A stretch of 64,000 nucleotides of DNA from an uncultured Bacilli bacterium. GTDB lineage: Bacteria; Bacillota_I; Bacilli_A; RF39; UBA660. The position numbers and the translations under genes were made by a program. Location: assembly GCA_947589495.1 (NCBI GenBank), contig CANQAK010000002.1:5121-69120 (forward strand), written 5' to 3'. The notes beneath the pieces are model-generated. The model was given only the letters and a program-made list of their open reading frames with translations, searched no databases and was not told the DNA's origin. Of the stretch, positions 628 through 63,356 are shown piece by piece (the first letter of the stretch is position 1; every line of letters starts with the position of its first letter).

Positions 628-1518
628 TTATTCATCTCCAATTGTTATATTAAAAATTTCCATTATTCTTTCTAAATCTTTTACTGAATCAAAAGTAATT
701 TCTATTTTATTTTTACTTATTTTAACTTTATTACCAATTTTATCACTTATTACATTTTCATAAATATGATATTTTGGTTCTTGTACTTTATTAACAATAG
801 GTTTTCTTTTTACAATTTCTCTATTATTAACTAACTTTTCTAATTCTCTAACATTTAAATTTTCTTTAATAACTTTATTAGCTAATAATTCTATTTGATC
901 TTTATCTTCTAATTTACTTAAAACTCGACCATGAGATTGAGAAATCATTCCTTTTACTAACATATTTTGAATATTATCTGGTAAATTTAAAAGTCCTAAA
1001 AGATTAGTTATATAACTTCTACTTTTTCCAAATTTAGTTGCAAATTCTTCTTGAGTAAAACCTCTTAACTTAATTATATTTAAAACACTTCTTGCTTCAT
1101 CAATAGGATTTAAGTCTTCTCTTTGGATATTTTCAATAAGAGCAATTTCCATCATTTCTTGGTCAGTAAAATCTTTAATTATGGCAGGTATTTCTGTTAG
1201 TCCAGCCATTTTAGATGCTCTTGTTCTTCTTTCACCTGCAATTAATTCATAACCCTTAATACTTTTTTTAACAATTATTGGTTGGACTATCCCATATTCT
1301 TTAATAGAAACTGCTAATTCTTTTAAAGATTCTTCATTAAAAGTATTTCTTGGTTGATAAGGATTACTTCTAATTTCATCTAATTTAATATTAACAACAT
1401 CATTTTTATTTTCCGTAACAATTTCTTTTTCAAAATTATCAAAATCAATTACATTATTGGTAAATAATTGTTCTAATCCCCTACCTAAAGCTTTCTTTTT
1501 AGTTTCCATTTCTTTCAA
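628..1518 (-). CDS. parB: Chromosome partitioning protein ParB/Spo0J (parS-binding type)
   Basis: Contains ALGRGLEQLF, the GERRxRA arginine patch (IAGERRTRASKMAG) and the HTH GKSRSYITNLLGLLNLP...SQSHGRVL. It has Arg at the ParB-type specificity position and lacks the Noc-type Gln/Lys/Lys/Arg set. It follows parA. Confidence 0.9.
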   Translation of the reverse strand: MKEMETKKKALGRGLEQLFTNNVIDFDNFEKEIVTENKNDVVNIKLDEIRSNPYQPRNTFNEESLKELAVSIKEYGIVQPIIVKKSIKGYELIAGERRTRASKMAGLTEIPAIIKDFTDQEMMEIALIENIQREDLNPIDEARSVLNIIKLRGFTQEEFATKFGKSRSYITNLLGLLNLPDNIQNMLVKGMISQSHGRVLSKLEDKDQIELLANKVIKENLNVRELEKLVNNREIVKRKPIVNKVQEPKYHIYENVISDKIGNKVKISKNKIEITFDSVKDLERIMEIFNITIGDE

Positions 1519-4337: not shown

Positions 4338-4721
4338 TTAGTTTCTAGGTCTTTTAGGTGGACGACAACCGTTGTGAGGTACAGGTGTTTCATCAATAAT
4401 ACTTGTAACTTCTAATCCTGCCCCTTGTAATGCTCTTATAGCATTTTCTCTTCCTGGTCCTAAACCTTTAACATAAACTTCAACTTTTTTAACACCTTGT
4501 TCAATTGCAGCTTGTGCTGCTGCTTCTGCTGTAAGACCTGCAGCATATGGAGTTTTCTTTTTACTTCCTAAATAACCAATTCTTCCAGCACTAGACCAAC
4601 TAATTGCATTTCCATCTTTATCTGAAATAGTAACAATTGTGTTATTATATGTTGAATGAATGTGTGCTAATGCTTCTGGAATATTTTTCTTTACTTTTCT
4701 TTTTCTTCTATTATATGCCAT
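4338..4721 (-). CDS. rpsK: 30S ribosomal protein S11
   Basis: [15 protein letters not shown]...[12 protein letters not shown], typical of S11. Confidence 0.96.
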
Positions 4722-12323: not shown

Positions 12324-12737
12324 TTACTCACCATCCTTTTTCACAAACTTACATTTAATAGGAAGTTTGTGAGAAGCAAGTCTTAACGCTTCCCTTGCAA
12401 CTGCTTCATCTACATCACTAATTTCAAACATAATTTTTCCTTCTTTAACAACTGCAACATATTGTTCTACGTTACCTTTACCTTTTCCTTGACGAGTTTC
12501 TAAAGGTTTCATTGTTAAAGGTAGATGTGGGAAAATATTAATAAATACTTTTCCACCACGTTTCATATAACGAGTCATTGCAATACGAGCTGCTTCAATT
12601 TGACGAGCTGAAACCCAAGCTCCTTCTAATGCTTGAAGTCCATATTCTCCTTTTGTAAGAGTAGTATTTCCTCTTGCATGACCATCATAAGTTAATCTAT
12701 GCGACTTTCTATATTTAGTCCTTTTTGGCATCAACAT
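12324..12737 (-). CDS. rplP: 50S ribosomal protein L16
   Basis: [14 protein letters not shown]... Confidence 0.96.
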
Positions 12738-13395
12738 GGTTAGTCGCCTCCTTCTTATTTAATCTTTTAGCAGGTAAAATTTCATCTTTGTAAATCCAAA
12801 CCTTAACGCCAATTTTTCCATAAGTAGTATTGGCTTCGCTTTGAGCATAATCAATGTCAGCACGAATTGTATGAAGAGGAACAGTACCTTCTGTATAACC
12901 TTCGCTTCTTGCCATTTCTACTCCGTTAAGACGTCCAGATACTAAAGTTTTAATTCCTTTAGCACCAGATTTCATTGTATCTCTAATTGCACGTTTTTGA
13001 GCTGCTCTAAAAGGAGCTCTATTTTCGATTTGCATTGCAATATTATCTGCAACTAATTTAGCATTTAAATTAGGATTTTTTTCTTCAACAATGTTAATAA
13101 ATACTTCTTCATTAACAAGTTTTGCAACTTTTTTTCTTAATGCATCGATGTCTTCTCCACCACGACCAATTATAACACCTGGTTTAGCAGTTTTGATTGT
13201 AACATCTACTCTATTTTTCTTTCTTTCAATAATTACAGAAGAAATTGCTGCATCTTTAAGATTTTTTAAAATATATTCACGAATTTTAATATCTTTATTT
13301 AAATTATTTGCATAATCTTTTTTAGAATACCAACGTGATTCCCAGTCTTTGTTAATACCTAAACGATAACCAACTGGATTTACTTTTTGTCCCAT
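12715..13395 (-). CDS. rpsC: 30S ribosomal protein S3
   Basis: [23 protein letters not shown]. Confidence 0.96.
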
Positions 13396-48304: not shown

Positions 48305-48727
48305 TTAAGAATTATCTCTTAAATTTTTAAAAAACTGTTTTAAAATTTCTTTATATCTATTTTGTAATTCTTTACAATCATTTGTTTGTATATATTTTAT
48401 TTCTTTATTAGTATCATTATTTTGAGGAACTAAATAATAAACTTTATCCAATCTACTTTCATTTATAAGCATTTTACACATATTACAAGGTTCTAAAGTT
48501 ACATACATTTCACATCCATCAAGTCGCCAATCTTTTAATTTTTTTTCCGCTAAAAGAATTGCATTTATTTCTGCATGTCCAAGTAAATTATATTTTTTTT
48601 GTCTATTATTATATCCTTTAGAAATTATTTTGTTGTTTTTTACAATAATAGCTCCTACAGGTATTTCTTTTTTATTATAAGCTTTTAAAGCTTCTTTATA
48701 TGCAACTTTCATATATTTTTCATTCAT
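48305..48727 (-). CDS. tadA: tRNA-specific adenosine deaminase
   Basis: HAEINAI and LEPCNMC. I place the start at ATG 48727, after GGGAG. The track's N-terminal extension overlaps the SRP RNA. Confidence 0.9.
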   Translation of the reverse strand: MNEKYMKVAYKEALKAYNKKEIPVGAIIVKNNKIISKGYNNRQKKYNLLGHAEINAILLAEKKLKDWRLDGCEMYVTLEPCNMCKMLINESRLDKVYYLVPQNNDTNKEIKYIQTNDCKELQNRYKEILKQFFKNLRDNS

Positions 48728-48750
48728 AAATAAGCACTCCCATAAAAAAA

Positions 48751-48821
48751 GCACACACAAACAGGGAACGATATGGCTGCTGTCTTCCAACTCTGACCAG
48801 TTTACGTTATATTTGTTGTGC
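48751..48821 (-). ncRNA. ffs: Small (4.5S-type) signal recognition particle RNA
   Basis: Minus strand reads GCACAACAAAUAUAACGUAAACUGGUCAGAGUUGGAAGACAGCAGCCAUAUCGUUCCCUGUUUGUGUGUGC followed by a U-run. The domain IV core GGUCAG..GGAAG.CAGCAGCC matches the conserved SRP RNA motif. The 5' and 3' ends pair. A promoter lies just upstream. Confidence 0.75.
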
Positions 48822-48827
48822 AAAAAA

Positions 48828-48855
48828 ATAATATCATAATAAAAGCTTTAATTCA
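48828..48855 (-). promoter_or_regulatory. Promoter of the SRP RNA
   Basis: Minus strand has TTGAAT, a 16-nt spacer, then TATTAT, about 7 nt before the RNA 5' end. Confidence 0.55.
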
Positions 48856-48886
48856 AGAATATATTTTTTTTAAATTTTTAAGAAAA

Positions 48887-48902
48887 ATATTTCCCGGGAA
48901 AT
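48887..48902. promoter_or_regulatory. Noc-binding-site (NBS) palindrome, copy 1
   Basis: Perfect TATTTCCCGGGAAATA. The core ATTTCCCGGGAAAT equals the Bacillus subtilis NBS consensus. Confidence 0.7.
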
Positions 48903-48994
48903 ATTTTTTCCATTTTTATAAATTTGGTAAATTATTTTCATTTTTTAAAATTGATCAATAAATTTAAACATTTTATTTAATATTTTTTTGTAAA

Positions 48995-49010
48995 TTATTT
49001 CCCGGGAAAT
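48995..49010. promoter_or_regulatory. NBS palindrome, copy 2
   Basis: Perfect TATTTCCCGGGAAATA, followed by ATTGGTTGACATAATAT. Confidence 0.7.
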
Positions 49011-49138
49011 AATTGGTTGACATAATATTTTTACCAATTTTCATGAGATTTGGTAATATAGCTAAAATTATGCATTAAATTTATTTGGATTCTATTTATA
49101 TTTATAATTATATTATTTTGTATAAATTTTCTTACTCA

Positions 49139-49154
49139 ATGTTTCACGTGAAAC
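49139..49154. promoter_or_regulatory. ParB-binding centromere site parS, copy 1
   Basis: Perfect 16-bp palindrome TGTTTCACGTGAAACA, matching the parS consensus TGTTNCACGTGAAACA. The extended palindrome CAATGTTTCACGTGAAACATTG spans 49136-49157. Confidence 0.85.
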
Positions 49155-49633
49155 ATTGTTTTATTTTTTTACAATTAAGATTCAATTATAAAATAAAAAT
49201 TTAAAAGTTATACATTTAATATTTATATAAAATTATTTTTTAATAAAAGCAAATTTTAAGAACATGCTGACTTAGTAAAAACAATTAAAAATATATTTTT
49301 TAAAATAATTATTTTTTTTAATTTGTTTATAAATTTAAAAAGATCAACAATAAAAACAATGTTAAGAGTTAGAAAATATTTATATATAAAATATGTTTAA
49401 AAATATAATAAATACTTTAAATTCAGAAAACTAAAAGAAACTATAAACTAAACTTTATTTTATAATTGTCTATATAGAAAAATCACACAAAAAATAAATA
49501 ATAAATTTAACTATTGAAAAAATTTATAAAATGTAACGAAGATAAACTATCAAAAAAATATTTTTAAAAAATGTACAATTTATTTTAATAGGATGTTCTA
49601 AAAATAAAATTATAAATATTATTAGCATATTCA

Positions 49634-49649
49634 ATGTTTCACGTGAAAC
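49634..49649. promoter_or_regulatory. ParB-binding centromere site parS, copy 2
   Basis: Identical 22-bp palindrome CAATGTTTCACGTGAAACATTG at 49631-49652. Confidence 0.85.
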
Positions 49650-49737
49650 ATTGAATAGACATTTAATAAAAAATATTTAAGATAGTAATTGCTTTACCAA
49701 TTCTTATAAGATTTGGCAAAAATATTATGTAAACCAA

Positions 49738-49753
49738 ATATTTCCCGGGAAAT
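49738..49753. promoter_or_regulatory. NBS palindrome, copy 3
   Basis: Perfect TATTTCCCGGGAAATA. Confidence 0.7.
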
Positions 49754-49930
49754 ATTTTTTGTATTAACAACAATAATAAAATAAAAGATAAATAAAATGA
49801 TCTAATAAATTTAAATAACTATTAAGCTTATTAAATACTTTATAAATGATAATGTTAATTCTTTTAATAATTAAAAATAAATAAAAACTATAATAAATTT
49901 TTTGAATCAGAAATATATTATGTCAACCAA

Positions 49931-49946
49931 TTATTTCCCGGGAAAT
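49931..49946. promoter_or_regulatory. NBS palindrome, copy 4
   Basis: Perfect TATTTCCCGGGAAATA. Confidence 0.7.
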
Positions 49947-50123
49947 ATTTTTTGTATTAACAACAATAATAAAATAAAAGATAAATAAAATAATCTAATA
50001 AATTTGAATAATTATTCAGTGTGTTAAATACTTTATAAATAATAATTTTAATTCTTTTAATAATTAAAAATTAATAAAAACTATAATAATTTTTTTAAAT
50101 CAGAAATATATTATGTCAACCAA

Positions 50124-50139
50124 TTATTTCCCGGGAAAT
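50124..50139. promoter_or_regulatory. NBS palindrome, copy 5
   Basis: Perfect TATTTCCCGGGAAATA. Confidence 0.7.
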
Positions 50140-50164
50140 AATTTTTACAAAAAGAAAAAGAATA

Positions 50165-52621
50165 TTACTCTTGAATATTCTTTTCAATTTCAGATTCTTC
50201 TTCTTCAGTTTTATCAACAATACTTATTGTAGCTATTTTTTGATTATTTCTTAAAGATATTAATCTCAAACCTTGTGTAACTCTTCCTAATAAAGATATT
50301 TGTTCAATTGGTAATTTAATAGTAATACCAGCATTAGTCATAATAATTACATCTTTATCTTCTTCAGCAACTTTAGCAGAAACTAAATTACCGTTCTTTT
50401 CAGTAATATTTAAAGATTTAACACCTTTACTTCCACGTTTTGTTTGTCTAAAATCACAAACTTTTGTGCGTTTTCCGTAACCATTTTCAGTTACTAATAA
50501 TATAATAGATTCTTCATTAACAACTTCAGCACATATACAACTACCATTTTCCAAATTTATACCTTTGACTCCAGTAGCGGTTCTTCCCATAGAACGTATC
50601 TCATTTTCTAAGAATTTAACCATTCTACCTTTATCACTACCTAAAAGTATAATATTTTCTCCATTAGTTTTTTTAACATCTAATAATTCATCATTATCTT
50701 TTAAGTTAATACATAATTTTCCAGAAGTTCTTATATTGTCAAATTCACTTAGTAAAGTCTTTTTAACAATTCCTTTTTTTGTTGCAAATAATAAATATTT
50801 TGCTTGTTCTTCTTTATCAATTTTAATGATTGAATTTATTTTTTCATCTTTTTCAATTTGTAACAAATTAACTACTGGTATTCCTTTAGATTGTCTACTA
50901 AACTCAGGAATTTCATAACCTTTTAATCTATAAACTTTACCTTTATTAGTAAAGAACATTATATAATCATGTGTCGATAAATTAATCAAATGCTCAACAA
51001 AATCTTCATCATTAGTTGTTAGACCTTTGACTCCAACTCCACCTCGATTTTGAACTTTAAAAGTATCGTTTGTAGTTCTTTTAATATAACCTTTATTAGT
51101 TAGTACTACCATGATATCTTCTTCAGGTATTAAAGATTCATCTTCGATATATTCAATCGCAGTCATATCAATTTTAGTACGACGTTCATCTGCATATTTA
51201 TCTTTAATTTCTAACAATTCATTTTTAATAATTTCTAATATTTTTTCTCTTGAAGCTAAAATAGCTTTATATTCTTCAATTTTATTTAATAACTCTTTAA
51301 GTTCTTCCTCGATCTTATTTCTTTCAAGACCTGTTAAACGACGAAGTTTTAATTCTAAGATAGCATCTGCTTGAATTTCTGTTAAATTATATTTAGCTAT
51401 TAAAGTTTCTTTTGCAATTACATCTGTTTCTGATTCTCTTATTATTTTAATAAAATCATCTATATTATCTAGTGCAATTTTATATCCTTCTAAAATATGT
51501 ACACGTTTTTCTGCTTTATCTAATTCAAAGCGAGTTCTTCTTATAATAACTTCTTCTTGATAATTTATATATTTAGAAATTATTGATTTTAATCCTAAAG
51601 TTTTAGGAACTTTATTATCAATCATTAATAAAATAATTCCATAACTTGTTTGAAATTGAGTATGTTTATATAAATTATTTAAAACAACTTGGGGATTAGC
51701 ATCTTTTTTCAAAGTAATAGTTATTTTAACTCCATTTTTTAAATCAGTATGATAATCAGCAATTCCATCAATTGTTTTATTATGAACTAATTCTGCAACT
51801 TTATTTTTTAATTCTGATACATTTACTCCGTAAGGTACTTCATCAATAATAATGTAATGTTTACCATCTTTTTCTTCAATAGTAGCTTTACTTCTTATAG
51901 TAATAGTACCTCTTCCTGTTTCATAAGCTTTTTTTATTCCACTATTACCTAAAATAATCCCACCAGTTGGAAAATCAGGACCCTTTATATATTTCATTAA
52001 CCCATCAGTATCAATATCTGGATTATCAATGTATGCAACACACCCATCAATTACCTCTCCTAAATTATGAGGAGGAATATTTGTAGCCATACCAACTGCT
52101 ATTCCCATTGTTCCATTGACTAAAATATTTGGAAATCTTGATGGTAAAATCTCTGGTTCTTTTTCTGATTCATCAAAGTTAGATACAAAATTTACCGTAT
52201 CTTTATTAATATCTCTTAATAACTCTAATGAAATTTTTGATAAACGAGATTCAGTATAACGCATAGCTGCTGCGCCAGCACCGGCAATATTTCCAAAGTT
52301 ACCATGTCCATCTACCAAAGGGTTACGATAACTAAAGTCTTGAGCCATACGTACCATTGCTTCATAAATACTTGAATCACCATGTGGATGATATTTACCC
52401 ATTACATCTCCAACAATACGTGCAGATTTTTTATGAGGTTTATCTGGTGTATAACCTGATTCATACATAGACCATAAAATTCTTCTATGAACAGGCTTTA
52501 ACCCATCTCTTAAATCAGGTAATGCTCTTGAAATTATTACACTCATTGAATATTCAATAAATGATGATTTAATTTCATTAACTATATTATTTTCTTCTAA
52601 TCTATCTCTACTATGATCCAT
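50165..52621 (-). CDS. gyrA: DNA gyrase subunit A
   Basis: 818 aa with [17 protein letters not shown] and AAAMRYTE (active-site Tyr). Confidence 0.97.
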
Positions 52622-55734: not shown

Positions 55735-56187
55735 TTAAACATTATTTATTTTTTTACGCCAATTTAAAATATTATTTAATTTAATCGCATTAATTAACAT
55801 TTTTTCAAAAATATATTTAGAAATATTAGTTTTAAAAATAATTCCATTCACACATTTTATTACTACTTTATCATTTTCTATATAATAATCTTTTATTTTA
55901 TCTAAAACTATAAATAAACATTCATTATCTCTTAAAGCATTAATTTGGATAAGAATTATATTATTAAATTCGGAAATAATAAGTGGTACTTTATAATTTA
56001 TTTGTAAATATTTTTGAGAATATTTTTTTCTTCCTACTAAACTACTTCCATAAAAATTACAATTTTCATCTAAAACCTTTTTAATATTTTTGTTAATAAC
56101 TTTTATGTTTTCAACATCATAAATAATAGTTTGTAAATTATGTTTTAAAACCGCTATAGTATTTTTATCAATTATATAATTTTGCAT
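55735..56187 (-). CDS. ComK-family competence transcription factor-like protein
   Basis: 150 aa. NTIAVL... and CNFYGSSLVGRKK...INYKVPLII...NIILI match the pattern of the B. subtilis ComK core (CRFFGSSYAGRK...ISHKPPIMV...NQIFLFPT), recalled from memory. Confidence 0.65.
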   Translation of the reverse strand: MQNYIIDKNTIAVLKHNLQTIIYDVENIKVINKNIKKVLDENCNFYGSSLVGRKKYSQKYLQINYKVPLIISEFNNIILIQINALRDNECLFIVLDKIKDYYIENDKVVIKCVNGIIFKTNISKYIFEKMLINAIKLNNILNWRKKINNV

Positions 56188-56238
56188 ATTACCTCCAAAA
56201 ATTTAAAATTTACTATAGCATAAACATTTTGAAAAATT

Positions 56239-56245
56239 TGTCGAA
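56239..56245 (+). promoter_or_regulatory. Perfect Spo0A (0A) box TGTCGAA in the ComK-like gene upstream region
   Basis: TGTCGAA lies 2 nt from NBS copy 6. Confidence 0.4.
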
Positions 56246-56246
56246 T

Positions 56247-56262
56247 TATTTCCCGGGAAATA
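56247..56262. promoter_or_regulatory. NBS palindrome, copy 6
   Basis: Perfect TATTTCCCGGGAAATA between the dnaN terminator and the ComK-like gene. Confidence 0.7.
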
Positions 56263-57549: not shown

Positions 57550-58920
57550 TTATAACTTAGATTTAATTTCTTTTAACATATCATCTAAAGTTGTATTATT
57601 TTTTAATTCATTTTTAATTTTTTCACAACTTGCTATAACAGTTGAATGATCTCTACCTCCAAATTCTAAACCAATTTTTGCTAAATTCTCTTCAGTTTCA
57701 ATACGACATAAATACATAGCAATATGTCTTGGTCTTGCAATATTATTACTTCTTCTTTTACTTTTTAAGTCTTCTACAGTTATTTTGAAATAGTCTGCCA
57801 CTACTTTTTGAATATGAGAAACTGTATTTTCTTGATAAATATTTATATTAACATAATCTTTAATTGCTTCAATGGTAAAATCTAAAGTAATTTCATCTGG
57901 AGTCATCATCGCAGTATACGCAAGTAATCTATTAATTGTCCCTTCAATATGTCTTACATCATTTGGACAAGCATTAGCAATATACTCAATAACATCTTTA
58001 TTTATTTTATCTTTAATACTTGTATTTTTTAATTTTTGTTCAATAATTGCACATCTAAGTTCAAACTCTGGTGGATAAATATCTACTGGAAGTCCCCAAG
58101 TAAATCGACTTCTCAGTCTTTCTTCAATCTTTTTTAAATCATCAGGACTTCGATCGCTTGTAATAATAATTTGTTTATTTTGTTGATATAAAGCTTCAAA
58201 TGTATGGAAAAATTCTTGTTGAGTAAGCTCTGCTCCTACTAAAAATTGAATATCATCTACCATTAATACATCTACATTACGATATTTATTTTTAAATTTA
58301 TTTGCATATTCTAAAGTATCTTTACCTTTTTCTTGTTTAGAAATACCAGCATACTCATCTCTAAAATCATTACTAGTTGTATATAATACCTTTTTATTTG
58401 AATGCTCTTTTATATAATTTCCAATTGCATGAATTAAATGTGTTTTTCCAATACCACTTCTTCCATAAATAAAAAGTGGATTTTTTATAGTTCCTGGAGA
58501 TTGAGCAACATTCATCGCTGAAATAAATGCTAATCTATTAGATTCTCCAACAACATAATTATCAAAATTTAAATTTGGATTTAAATTAGTATTCCATTCA
58601 ACAGTTTGTTCTTTTAAATCTTCTTCTATATCTTCAATTGTTTCAGTTACTTTTTCTAATTCATCTTCTGTTACTAATTTAAAATCATAATTTATCCCCG
58701 TAAGAGAAAAGATTGTTTCATCTAATAAATCCATATAAGATGTTCTTATTATCTGTTTATGTACTGGAAGAGGTACTTTAATAACCATCTCTTGGTTGTC
58801 CATACTTACCAGTTCTAAATCATTAAACCAAACAGAATATGTACTAGAACTTACTGAATCAGCAATTTCTGCTAAAAATTGCTTAAAAAGTTCTTGTGTT
58901 TTCAATACCTCACCCCACAA
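57550..58920 (-). CDS. dnaA: Chromosomal replication initiator DnaA
   Basis: NPLFIYGRSGIGKTHL, VDDIQFL and the domain IV GGRDHSTV. The exact start is uncertain (TTG at 58920 versus a TTG 15 nt downstream). Confidence 0.95.
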   Translation of the reverse strand: MWGEVLKTQELFKQFLAEIADSVSSSTYSVWFNDLELVSMDNQEMVIKVPLPVHKQIIRTSYMDLLDETIFSLTGINYDFKLVTEDELEKVTETIEDIEEDLKEQTVEWNTNLNPNLNFDNYVVGESNRLAFISAMNVAQSPGTIKNPLFIYGRSGIGKTHLIHAIGNYIKEHSNKKVLYTTSNDFRDEYAGISKQEKGKDTLEYANKFKNKYRNVDVLMVDDIQFLVGAELTQQEFFHTFEALYQQNKQIIITSDRSPDDLKKIEERLRSRFTWGLPVDIYPPEFELRCAIIEQKLKNTSIKDKINKDVIEYIANACPNDVRHIEGTINRLLAYTAMMTPDEITLDFTIEAIKDYVNINIYQENTVSHIQKVVADYFKITVEDLKSKRRSNNIARPRHIAMYLCRIETEENLAKIGLEFGGRDHSTVIASCEKIKNELKNNTTLDDMLKEIKSKL

Positions 58921-62846: not shown

Positions 62847-63356
62847 ATGTTTCGTTTAGCTACAAAAAATGATGTAAATAAAATTATGGATATTGTTAAA
62901 GTTATTATTGTTGATATGAAATGTGAAGGTAACTATCAGTGGGATGAATTTTATCCTACTGATAAAGATTTTTTAAATGATATAAATAATAATAATTTAT
63001 ATGTTTTAGAAGAAAATGATACATTATTAGGGTTTATTTGTGTAGTTAAAGCAAATAATAAAGATTATGAAAATGTTTCTATTAAAAGTAGGGATGAATC
63101 TTATATAATTCATCGTCTAGGAGTAAATAAAAATTATAGAAATCAAAAAATTGCTCAAAGATTACTTGAATATGGTGAAAAAATAGCTAAAAAAAATAAT
63201 ATTTTTTTAATGAAGTCAGATACCAAAATAACTAATATAAAAATGAATAATTTATTTCAAAAAGTTGGTTACATTAAAAAATGTGAATTTCAAATGCAAG
63301 AAAAAGATGGAAATTATGGTACTTATAATTATTATGAAAAAGATTTAAGGATGTGA
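62847..63356 (+). CDS. GNAT-family N-acetyltransferase
   Basis: HRLGVNKNYRNQKIAQRLLEYGEKIAK, an acetyl-CoA-binding motif A. I place the start at ATG 62847. Confidence 0.75.
   Translation: MFRLATKNDVNKIMDIVKVIIVDMKCEGNYQWDEFYPTDKDFLNDINNNNLYVLEENDTLLGFICVVKANNKDYENVSIKSRDESYIIHRLGVNKNYRNQKIAQRLLEYGEKIAKKNNIFLMKSDTKITNIKMNNLFQKVGYIKKCEFQMQEKDGNYGTYNYYEKDLRM

Follow-up and report, generated by a model that had tools for sequence, protein, structure and literature searches.

What is a stretch of DNA without genes for when it lies close to a replication origin and carries the binding sites of two related DNA clamps? The question is raised by a 64,000-nucleotide stretch (the window, taken at its full length) of the chromosome of an uncultured Bacilli bacterium, contig CANQAK010000002.1, in which positions 48828-50164, between the signal recognition particle (SRP) RNA gene scr and gyrA, form a gene-free island. 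The island combines parS, the palindrome on which the partition protein ParB loads, with the Noc-binding site (NBS), the palindrome of its paralogue Noc. The locus is a dedicated, conserved island and not a chance cluster. Taken as a whole, we consider it likely that it constitutes a dedicated non-coding centromere of the chromosome, with ParB on parS, a Noc-type clamp on NBS, and the border NBS acting as bookends.

The original prediction had described two perfect parS and five perfect NBS in the order NBS, NBS, parS, 479 bp, parS, NBS, NBS, NBS, and this account was reproduced in full. Perfect parS, TGTTTCACGTGAAACA, occur at 49140 and 49635 and are the sole matches in 64 kb even when up to two mismatches are allowed. 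Perfect NBS, TATTTCCCGGGAAATA, start at 48888, 48996, 49739, 49932 and 50125, and a sixth lies outside the island at 56247. Shuffling the window sequence gave an expectation of 0.02 matches to the parS consensus TGTTNCACGTGAAACA, with two observed, and of 0.00 for NBS, with six observed. The assignment to known consensus sequences was right as well, as the sites match the experimentally defined 16-mers exactly, including the 16-bp NBS consensus established in the same studies (PMC7383237, PMC8429893). A 22-bp palindrome, CAATGTTTCACGTGAAACATTG, encloses each parS: parS1 spans 49137-49158 with its 16-mer at 49140-49155, parS2 spans 49632-49653 with its 16-mer at 49635-49650, and an AT-rich spacer of 473 bp (49159-49631) separates the two. 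NBS1 (48888-48903) and NBS2 (48996-49011) lie on the scr side, and NBS3 (49739-49754), NBS4 (49932-49947) and NBS5 (50125-50140) on the gyrA side, the last ending 25 bp from the gyrA stop codon. These latter three are carried by a tandem repeat with a 193-bp unit (49718-50146; 2.2 copies, 93% matches). A flanking motif, ATTGGTT(G/T)ACATAATAT, accompanies four of the five island NBS on the side facing the parS pair. It follows NBS2 as ATTGGTTGACATAATAT at 49012-49028 and precedes NBS3 (minus strand, 49722-49738), NBS4 (49915-49931) and NBS5 (50108-50124).

Comparison with relatives carries the argument beyond a single genome. The window has a G+C content of 24% and comes from an uncultured low-GC gut bacterium. 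Its nearest gyrA sequences, at 89-90% identity, belong to rabbit-gut metagenome-assembled genomes recorded as 'uncultured Bacilli bacterium', and remoter matches are labelled Tenericutes, Erysipelotrichaceae, Candidatus Ventrenecus and Candidatus Onthocola. The lineage uses the standard genetic code, and because PBP, MurA and SpoIIR are encoded on the contig of a relative we take it to be walled low-GC Bacilli. We compared 80 gyrA loci from GTDB species representatives and made counts on the 68 that have enough sequence downstream of gyrA; related contigs and loci are referred to by L-numbers (L006, L074, L087 and so on). In these loci parS and NBS accumulate immediately past the 3' end of gyrA. 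The 52 kb of gyrA-downstream gap hold 216 perfect parS, against 22 in the 1.34 Mb outside, and most of those 22 lie just past tadA, where tadA splits the island. For perfect NBS the numbers are 55 and 50, so that NBS are 28-fold denser inside the gap than outside, which answers the concern that such palindromes might be as frequent elsewhere. At least two parS are present in 64 of the 68 islands when the TGTTCC variant is counted too (median 4, maximum 12), with a median spacing of 135 bp in islands of 0.3-1.8 kb, and 41 of 68 contain at least one NBS. Apart from the NBS modules the islands cannot be aligned, and the sole 11-mers that they have in common are parS and NBS.

A scan of public metagenome contigs for an NBS and a parS separated by 5-35 bp, which is not biased towards any locus, returned at least 120 contigs, nearly all with 19-31% G+C; among the matches listed, 116 of 120 have the pair beside gyrA and/or tadA/dnaX. 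The composite island occurs at the same position in well over 100 related genomes. One island at first looked empty: in L074 (12459-14021) it holds eight copies of a symmetric variant, TGTTCCACGTGGAACA, and no NBS.

The borders of the island in the window are formed by scr (48745-48827, minus strand; matched to Rfam RF00169 with 48.6 bits, the gathering score being 40) and by gyrA (50165-52621, minus strand), which reads into the island and has its stop codon at 50165. Its neighbours are the gyrA 3' end on one side and the scr-tadA-dnaX transcription unit on the other. The earlier statement that no open reading frame (ORF) of 60 or more residues is present holds, the longest ORF fully within the gap having 47. 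Gene calls on sister contigs give tadA 140 residues (48305-48727), and a listed ORF of 172 residues at 48305-48823, which overlaps the SRP RNA, is an over-extended tadA; with the 140-residue protein, the non-coding stretch including scr amounts to 1437 bp. Up to about 59 kb, every gene is encoded on the minus strand. From the position of dnaA (57550-58920, minus strand) and the change of GC-skew sign near 59 kb, the island lies 7.4-10 kb from oriC, in agreement with the 7-10 kb from dnaA first proposed.

Which proteins would read these sites? ParB proteins nucleate at parS, close upon binding cytidine triphosphate (CTP) and slide along DNA, the resulting complex engages Soj and loads SMC, and Noc acts likewise from NBS (PMC7053999, PMC7333895, PMC8429893). 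The predicted parS reader is encoded in the window by parB (628-1518, minus strand), with the gene for its partner ATPase, soj/parA, at 1499-2284 on the same strand. Its early classification as a ParB-type gene stands: the protein is of the Spo0J type, finds its best solved match in B. subtilis Spo0J (206 bits), has the GKSR sequence and an N-terminal LGRGL ParA-binding motif, and carries R/L/N/S at the specificity positions 173/179/184/201 (numbered after Caulobacter ParB). All 120 ParB homologues collected from the lineage (P0121-P0240) show R-L-(K/N/R)-S together with the ParA-binding motif. This ParB would load at parS, close into CTP clamps and spread, forming a partition complex that would be acted on by Soj and recruit SMC. 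The soj-parB pair is 57 kb away from oriC, where it comes after the ribosomal cluster rpoA-rplQ and before a DUF951 gene, and does not stand beside noc and rsmG. Unlike at B. subtilis spo0J, no parS was found in or near parB in the window.

For the NBS the predicted reader is another CTP clamp of the ParB family, a Noc-type paralogue whose gene comes after mnmG-rsmG. This is where the original prediction had placed it, just beyond the window, and a Noc-type ORF does follow rsmG in L087 and L089. L087 stems from the same species, its GNAT protein being identical to that of the window; at 4427-4492 of this contig rsmG ends with a TAA stop and is followed by GTG AAT AAT GAA and so on, translating to MNNESQVLNLPIEDIIPNRFQP with a Noc-type box, where the contig ends. 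Syntenic full-length noc genes are present in L089 (6324-7481) and L074 (1745-3166), so a Noc-type gene exists in the lineage, and it adjoins rsmG in L087, L089 and L074 alike. In L074 noc lies directly upstream of dnaA, and an NBS (1591-1606) is found about 150 bp before its start. The GNAT acetyltransferase gene of the window (62847-63356) is located between mnmE and mnmG and is absent from that place in L089.

Among 120 Noc-like homologues from the lineage, 119 have Q173/K179/x184/R201, and the ParA motif occurs in none. Of the predicted Gln/Lys/Lys/Arg set, Q173, K179 and R201 were found, while position 184 is mostly not the expected lysine, being asparagine in 113 of the 120. Q173 and R201 are known to switch specificity to NBS if lysine is present at 179 or 184 (PMC7383237). 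Compared with solved structures, the Noc-like protein scores 208 bits with Geobacillus/B. subtilis Noc and 174 bits with Spo0J, and it retains the GERR and ENxQR CTP motifs and the Noc C-terminal domain. The B. subtilis Noc sequence used as reference is identical to PDB 7ol9 over residues 1-242. The lineage proteins differ from it at the N-terminus. They start 16-19 residues ahead of PNRFQPR, compared with 39 in B. subtilis Noc (the motif begins at residue 17 and at residue 40, respectively), and align with Geobacillus Noc from residue 26 of that protein onwards. Hence they lack both the amphipathic helix alpha1 and helix alpha2. This is not the result of a mis-called start, since the rsmG stop abuts the start in L087 and the rsmG-noc gap in L089 is 38 bp. 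Both helices are specific to the Noc family and required for membrane binding and occlusion (PMC8429893). Their absence weakens the earlier proposal of a nucleoid-occlusion centre and makes a role at the centromere likelier than membrane-tethered occlusion. The linker of the Noc-like proteins is disordered, spans 100-250 residues and bears a recurrent aromatic motif (FFNFLD, FFPSL, DFxxFF), which is possibly a relocated membrane- or partner-binding element.

The arrangement of the sites offers a clue to what a second clamp might do. Forty islands have two or more parS together with one or more NBS. In these, 44 of the 80 array-edge positions are taken by NBS where shuffling leads one to expect 24, and none of 5000 shuffles reached 44, a figure that is not a true probability because the genomes are related and fall into few pattern clades. 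In the window and the clade closest to it, the parS block has its NBS on the outside, with 104-144 bp to the nearest parS. As far as site order can tell, the edge bias favours the insulation proposed earlier. NBS probably act as bookends: Noc on the border NBS would halt sliding ParB clamps and confine them to the island, which would keep the partition complex compact and off gyrA and the promoter of scr-tadA-dnaX, and would at the same time place a dense cluster of Noc on the segregating origin. Tightly bound proteins do block ParB sliding in vitro (PMC7053999). More tentatively, we see a possibility, though one that we would not bet on, that the two clamps together make up the centromere, so that an anchor-less Noc would be an integral part of the partition complex, a boundary or partner of ParB instead of an occlusion factor, and may preserve an ancestral state.

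Several observations weigh against the main interpretation, that of a centromere with bookends. The Noc of the window's species is known from residues 1-22 alone (L087); homologue searches did not return its full-length sequence, and the mnmE/GNAT contigs end in or just after rsmG. Noc-like proteins reach 273-296 bits on the NCBIfam model TIGR04285, below its cut-off of 315, although this is still their best-scoring family and the window's ParB scores 237. Given this score and the missing membrane helices, we call the protein Noc-type with respect to DNA reading and ancestry, and not a demonstrated occlusion factor. Site patterns fall into about three to four clades, among them N..P..N (N, NBS; P, parS) in the closest relatives of the window, P..PN at middle distance, with NBS on the scr/tadA side, and interleaved PNP in others, and the edge statistic counts related genomes as though they were independent. 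NBS are confined to one side, or missing, in many islands (for example L022, L028, L029, L034 and L038, which like L025 have parS only), so a boundary cannot be obligatory. In some clades NBS and parS alternate at 23-50 bp inside the array, and all 120 lineage ParB homologues have serine at 201 (glycine in Caulobacter ParB), a residue that also occurs in dual-specificity variants of a published library and is linked there to relaxed specificity in some backgrounds (PMC7383237).

The alternation leads to the main rival, a mixed complex of ParB and Noc. Both clamps would load side by side into one partition or condensation complex, to which Noc would add mass, bridging or a handle for positioning the origin, and ParB would not be limited. 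The distance from NBS to the nearest parS has a median of 80 bp, many pairs being 23-50 bp apart, and such spacing inside arrays fits co-assembly better than insulation. Alternation is seen in many metagenome contigs (e.g. L137, L172) and as 62-bp units in L075, and a Noc that lacks the membrane helix yet keeps its CTP motifs and dimerization domain would suit the same role. The L075 array (12480-12860) is the most regular composite array that we observed, with six tandem units in each of which a one-mismatch parS (AGTTTCACGTGAAACA) and an NBS are 10 bp apart. The 104-144 bp that separate NBS from the parS block in the window and its closest clade speak against a mixed complex, as do the complete lack of hybrid sites and the lack of a ParA-binding motif in the Noc-like proteins. 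Moreover, we know of no heterotypic interaction between ParB and Noc. On balance we regard this rival as rather unlikely.

The serine at position 201 raises another alternative, in which there is a single reader: a lineage ParB of relaxed specificity (R173, S201) would bind both palindromes, NBS being merely a second class of ParB site. Lysine or arginine at 184 in 76 of the 120 ParB homologues would be compatible with this, and so would the published library, where most dual-specificity variants show threonine or serine at 201 and some NBS binders tolerate R173. A relaxed protein, however, should accept hybrid sites. When we searched for all 16 combinations at the four bases that discriminate parS from NBS, the islands yielded 347 pure parS and 84 pure NBS and not one hybrid among the 431 sites, and outside the islands the same pattern gave 34 NBS and one near-parS. 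These 34 NBS, in about 1.3 Mb of origin-proximal flanks, are all single, half of them lie in coding sequence, and none has a parS nearby, which is the known Noc pattern. With hybrids absent and a separate, syntenic Q/K/x/R Noc-type paralogue conserved, a single relaxed ParB is very unlikely.

The left edge of the array points to a third alternative. A promoter-like site for scr was predicted by a consensus scan at 48828-48856 (TTGAAT, 17 nt, TG-TATTAT) and terminates exactly at the SRP RNA 5' end. NBS1 is centred 69 bp upstream of that end, 32 bp upstream of the -35 box. In most loci with a placed RNA (L006-L083) the last site of the array, be it parS or NBS, likewise has its centre 39-92 bp (typically 46-69 bp) before the 5' end of the SRP RNA and abuts the scr -35 box on its upstream side, which hints that the array border and the scr promoter are coupled. 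The CCCGGG palindromes could then be operators at which an unrelated transcription factor controls scr/tadA/dnaX, comK or other genes, and would match NBS by coincidence. In favour of such a factor one may cite the place of NBS1, a further NBS 60 bp upstream of a comK-like gene, and an extended palindrome of about 50 bp that often surrounds island NBS and is not seen at those outside. Yet the sites agree with the defined NBS at 16 of 16 positions, a Noc reader to match them is encoded, coding sequence contains half of the outside NBS, and in many relatives it is parS rather than NBS that adjoins the scr promoter. We therefore hold operators to be the least probable of the alternatives, and extremely so.

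Two of the features just mentioned deserve a closer description. The NBS near the comK-like gene is the solitary one of the window (56247-56262), located between dnaN and a ComK-family ORF of 150 residues (within 55735-56262, between dnaN and recF; PF06338 on sister contigs). It lies 60 bp upstream of the ORF start and is kept in close relatives (L008, L011, L018 and L023), where about 6.06 kb separate it from the gyrA end. The extended palindrome, AATATTATGTAAACCAAT-NBS-ATTGGTTTACATAATATT, surrounds 26 of 81 island NBS and none of 33 outside. Its copies in the window are at 48983-49032, 49718-49758, 49911-49951 and 50104-50153, and it recurs in L009, L010, L012-L015, L017, L023, L027, L030, L032, L035, L040 and L044, with 92-97% conservation even between genomes whose gyrA genes are merely 75% identical. 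A second type of palindrome, TTACCAA-N12-TTGG(T/C)AA, occurs twice, in symmetric positions that separate the inner NBS from the parS pair (49031-49056 and 49694-49719). It is absent from all 80 related loci and therefore species-specific or due to chance.

Could the island be something else altogether, or not real? An assembly artefact is ruled out, as contigs with dnaX from three further metagenome samples (L092, L093, L095) independently reproduce it at 99-100% identity; relatives carry the island too, so it is no degenerate remnant either. In these contigs, which come from the same species, one 193-bp unit is missing, and this leaves four NBS instead of five, with two NBS borne by the shorter repeat (L092 1782-1975, L093 616-809) where the window has three; the difference is either real copy-number variation or a collapse of the repeat in short-read assembly. 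A replication-origin element was rejected, no DnaA box (TTATCCACA) being found within 48828-50164 at up to one mismatch. Similarly, a hidden RNA gene is not supported: Rfam matches at E of at most 1 comprise the SRP RNA and two at chance level, and there are no tRNAs. The spacer between the parS sites shows no excess structure (fold z-score +0.95 compared with shuffles). A hidden small gene was dismissed because the largest ORF has 47 residues and nothing apart from parS and NBS is shared by the islands. Finally, an origin from a mobile element or phage was discarded, since the scan for NBS-parS pairs found zero matches in viral contigs and the NBS flank motif has no further occurrence in the window except look-alikes in coding sequence.

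Both systems are well known in themselves, and the island can be placed with respect to them. It resembles the chromosomal ParABS systems of B. subtilis (Spo0J/Soj), Caulobacter, Pseudomonas and Corynebacterium in its use of the same 16-bp palindrome close to the origin, in the clustering of several parS, and in a ParB with a ParA-binding motif that is encoded together with Soj. In B. subtilis, parS sites are spread over hundreds of kb and are mostly inside genes. Here, unlike in the known ParABS systems, 2-12 perfect parS are gathered in one non-coding island of 0.3-1.8 kb at a fixed place between gyrA and scr/tadA, and none is found in or near parB. That parS cluster is known, and the cause is a stated open question (PMC7333895). 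With Noc and NBS of B. subtilis and S. aureus the lineage shares the identical 16-bp NBS, a CTPase derived from ParB with Q173, K179 and R201 that is encoded after rsmG, and NBS that occur singly and dispersed in coding as well as intergenic DNA, as has been described for Noc in both species (PMC8429893, PMC5540599). It differs in that NBS are 28-fold concentrated at the centromere, flanking the parS array, and its protein departs from canonical Noc in lacking the amphipathic helix and helix alpha2, in having N and not K at 184, and in its disordered linker of 100-250 residues.

An iterated centromere is also found on plasmids, in sopC of F. Like sopC, the island is a compact non-coding block of repeated sites for a ParB-family protein; unlike sopC, it is chromosomal, its spacing is mostly irregular (regular in a few cases, e.g. 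L075 and L024), and it has sites for two paralogous readers. A conceptual parallel is KorB-KorA of plasmid RK2, where a ParB-family sliding clamp is halted by a second DNA-bound protein (PMC11790492). By analogy, a second site-specific protein would set the stop of the clamp here as well, with the differences that the protein proposed to stop it is a CTP clamp too, and a paralogue, and that the purpose would be confinement of a centromere and not gene silencing. Full-text searches of the literature turned up no account of an island that combines parS with NBS, nor of a Noc that lacks its membrane helix, and a 2025 survey of the ParB-CTPase fold covers Noc in its canonical form only. What is new is the fusion of parS and NBS into one compact, conserved island, together with an anchor-less Noc.

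For this lineage the finding means that a whole clade of gut Bacilli has its probable centromere squeezed into about 1 kb of non-coding DNA, in which there are just two kinds of elements: the sites where two paralogous CTP clamps load, laid out in a flanking order that recurs. It touches on two open questions of the field, namely why parS sites cluster and what limits the spreading of ParB (PMC7333895). The island provides a minimal natural substrate to ask whether one ParB-family clamp can confine another or cooperate with it, and since its components are short and can be synthesized, it is accessible in vitro despite the uncultured hosts. It also bears on the role of Noc without membrane binding, and on how Noc and NBS diverged from ParB and parS without hybrid intermediates. 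If the two clamps do form the centromere together, these bacteria may keep a state from which Noc and NBS arose by way of a duplicated ParB and a parS array, before membrane binding was acquired.

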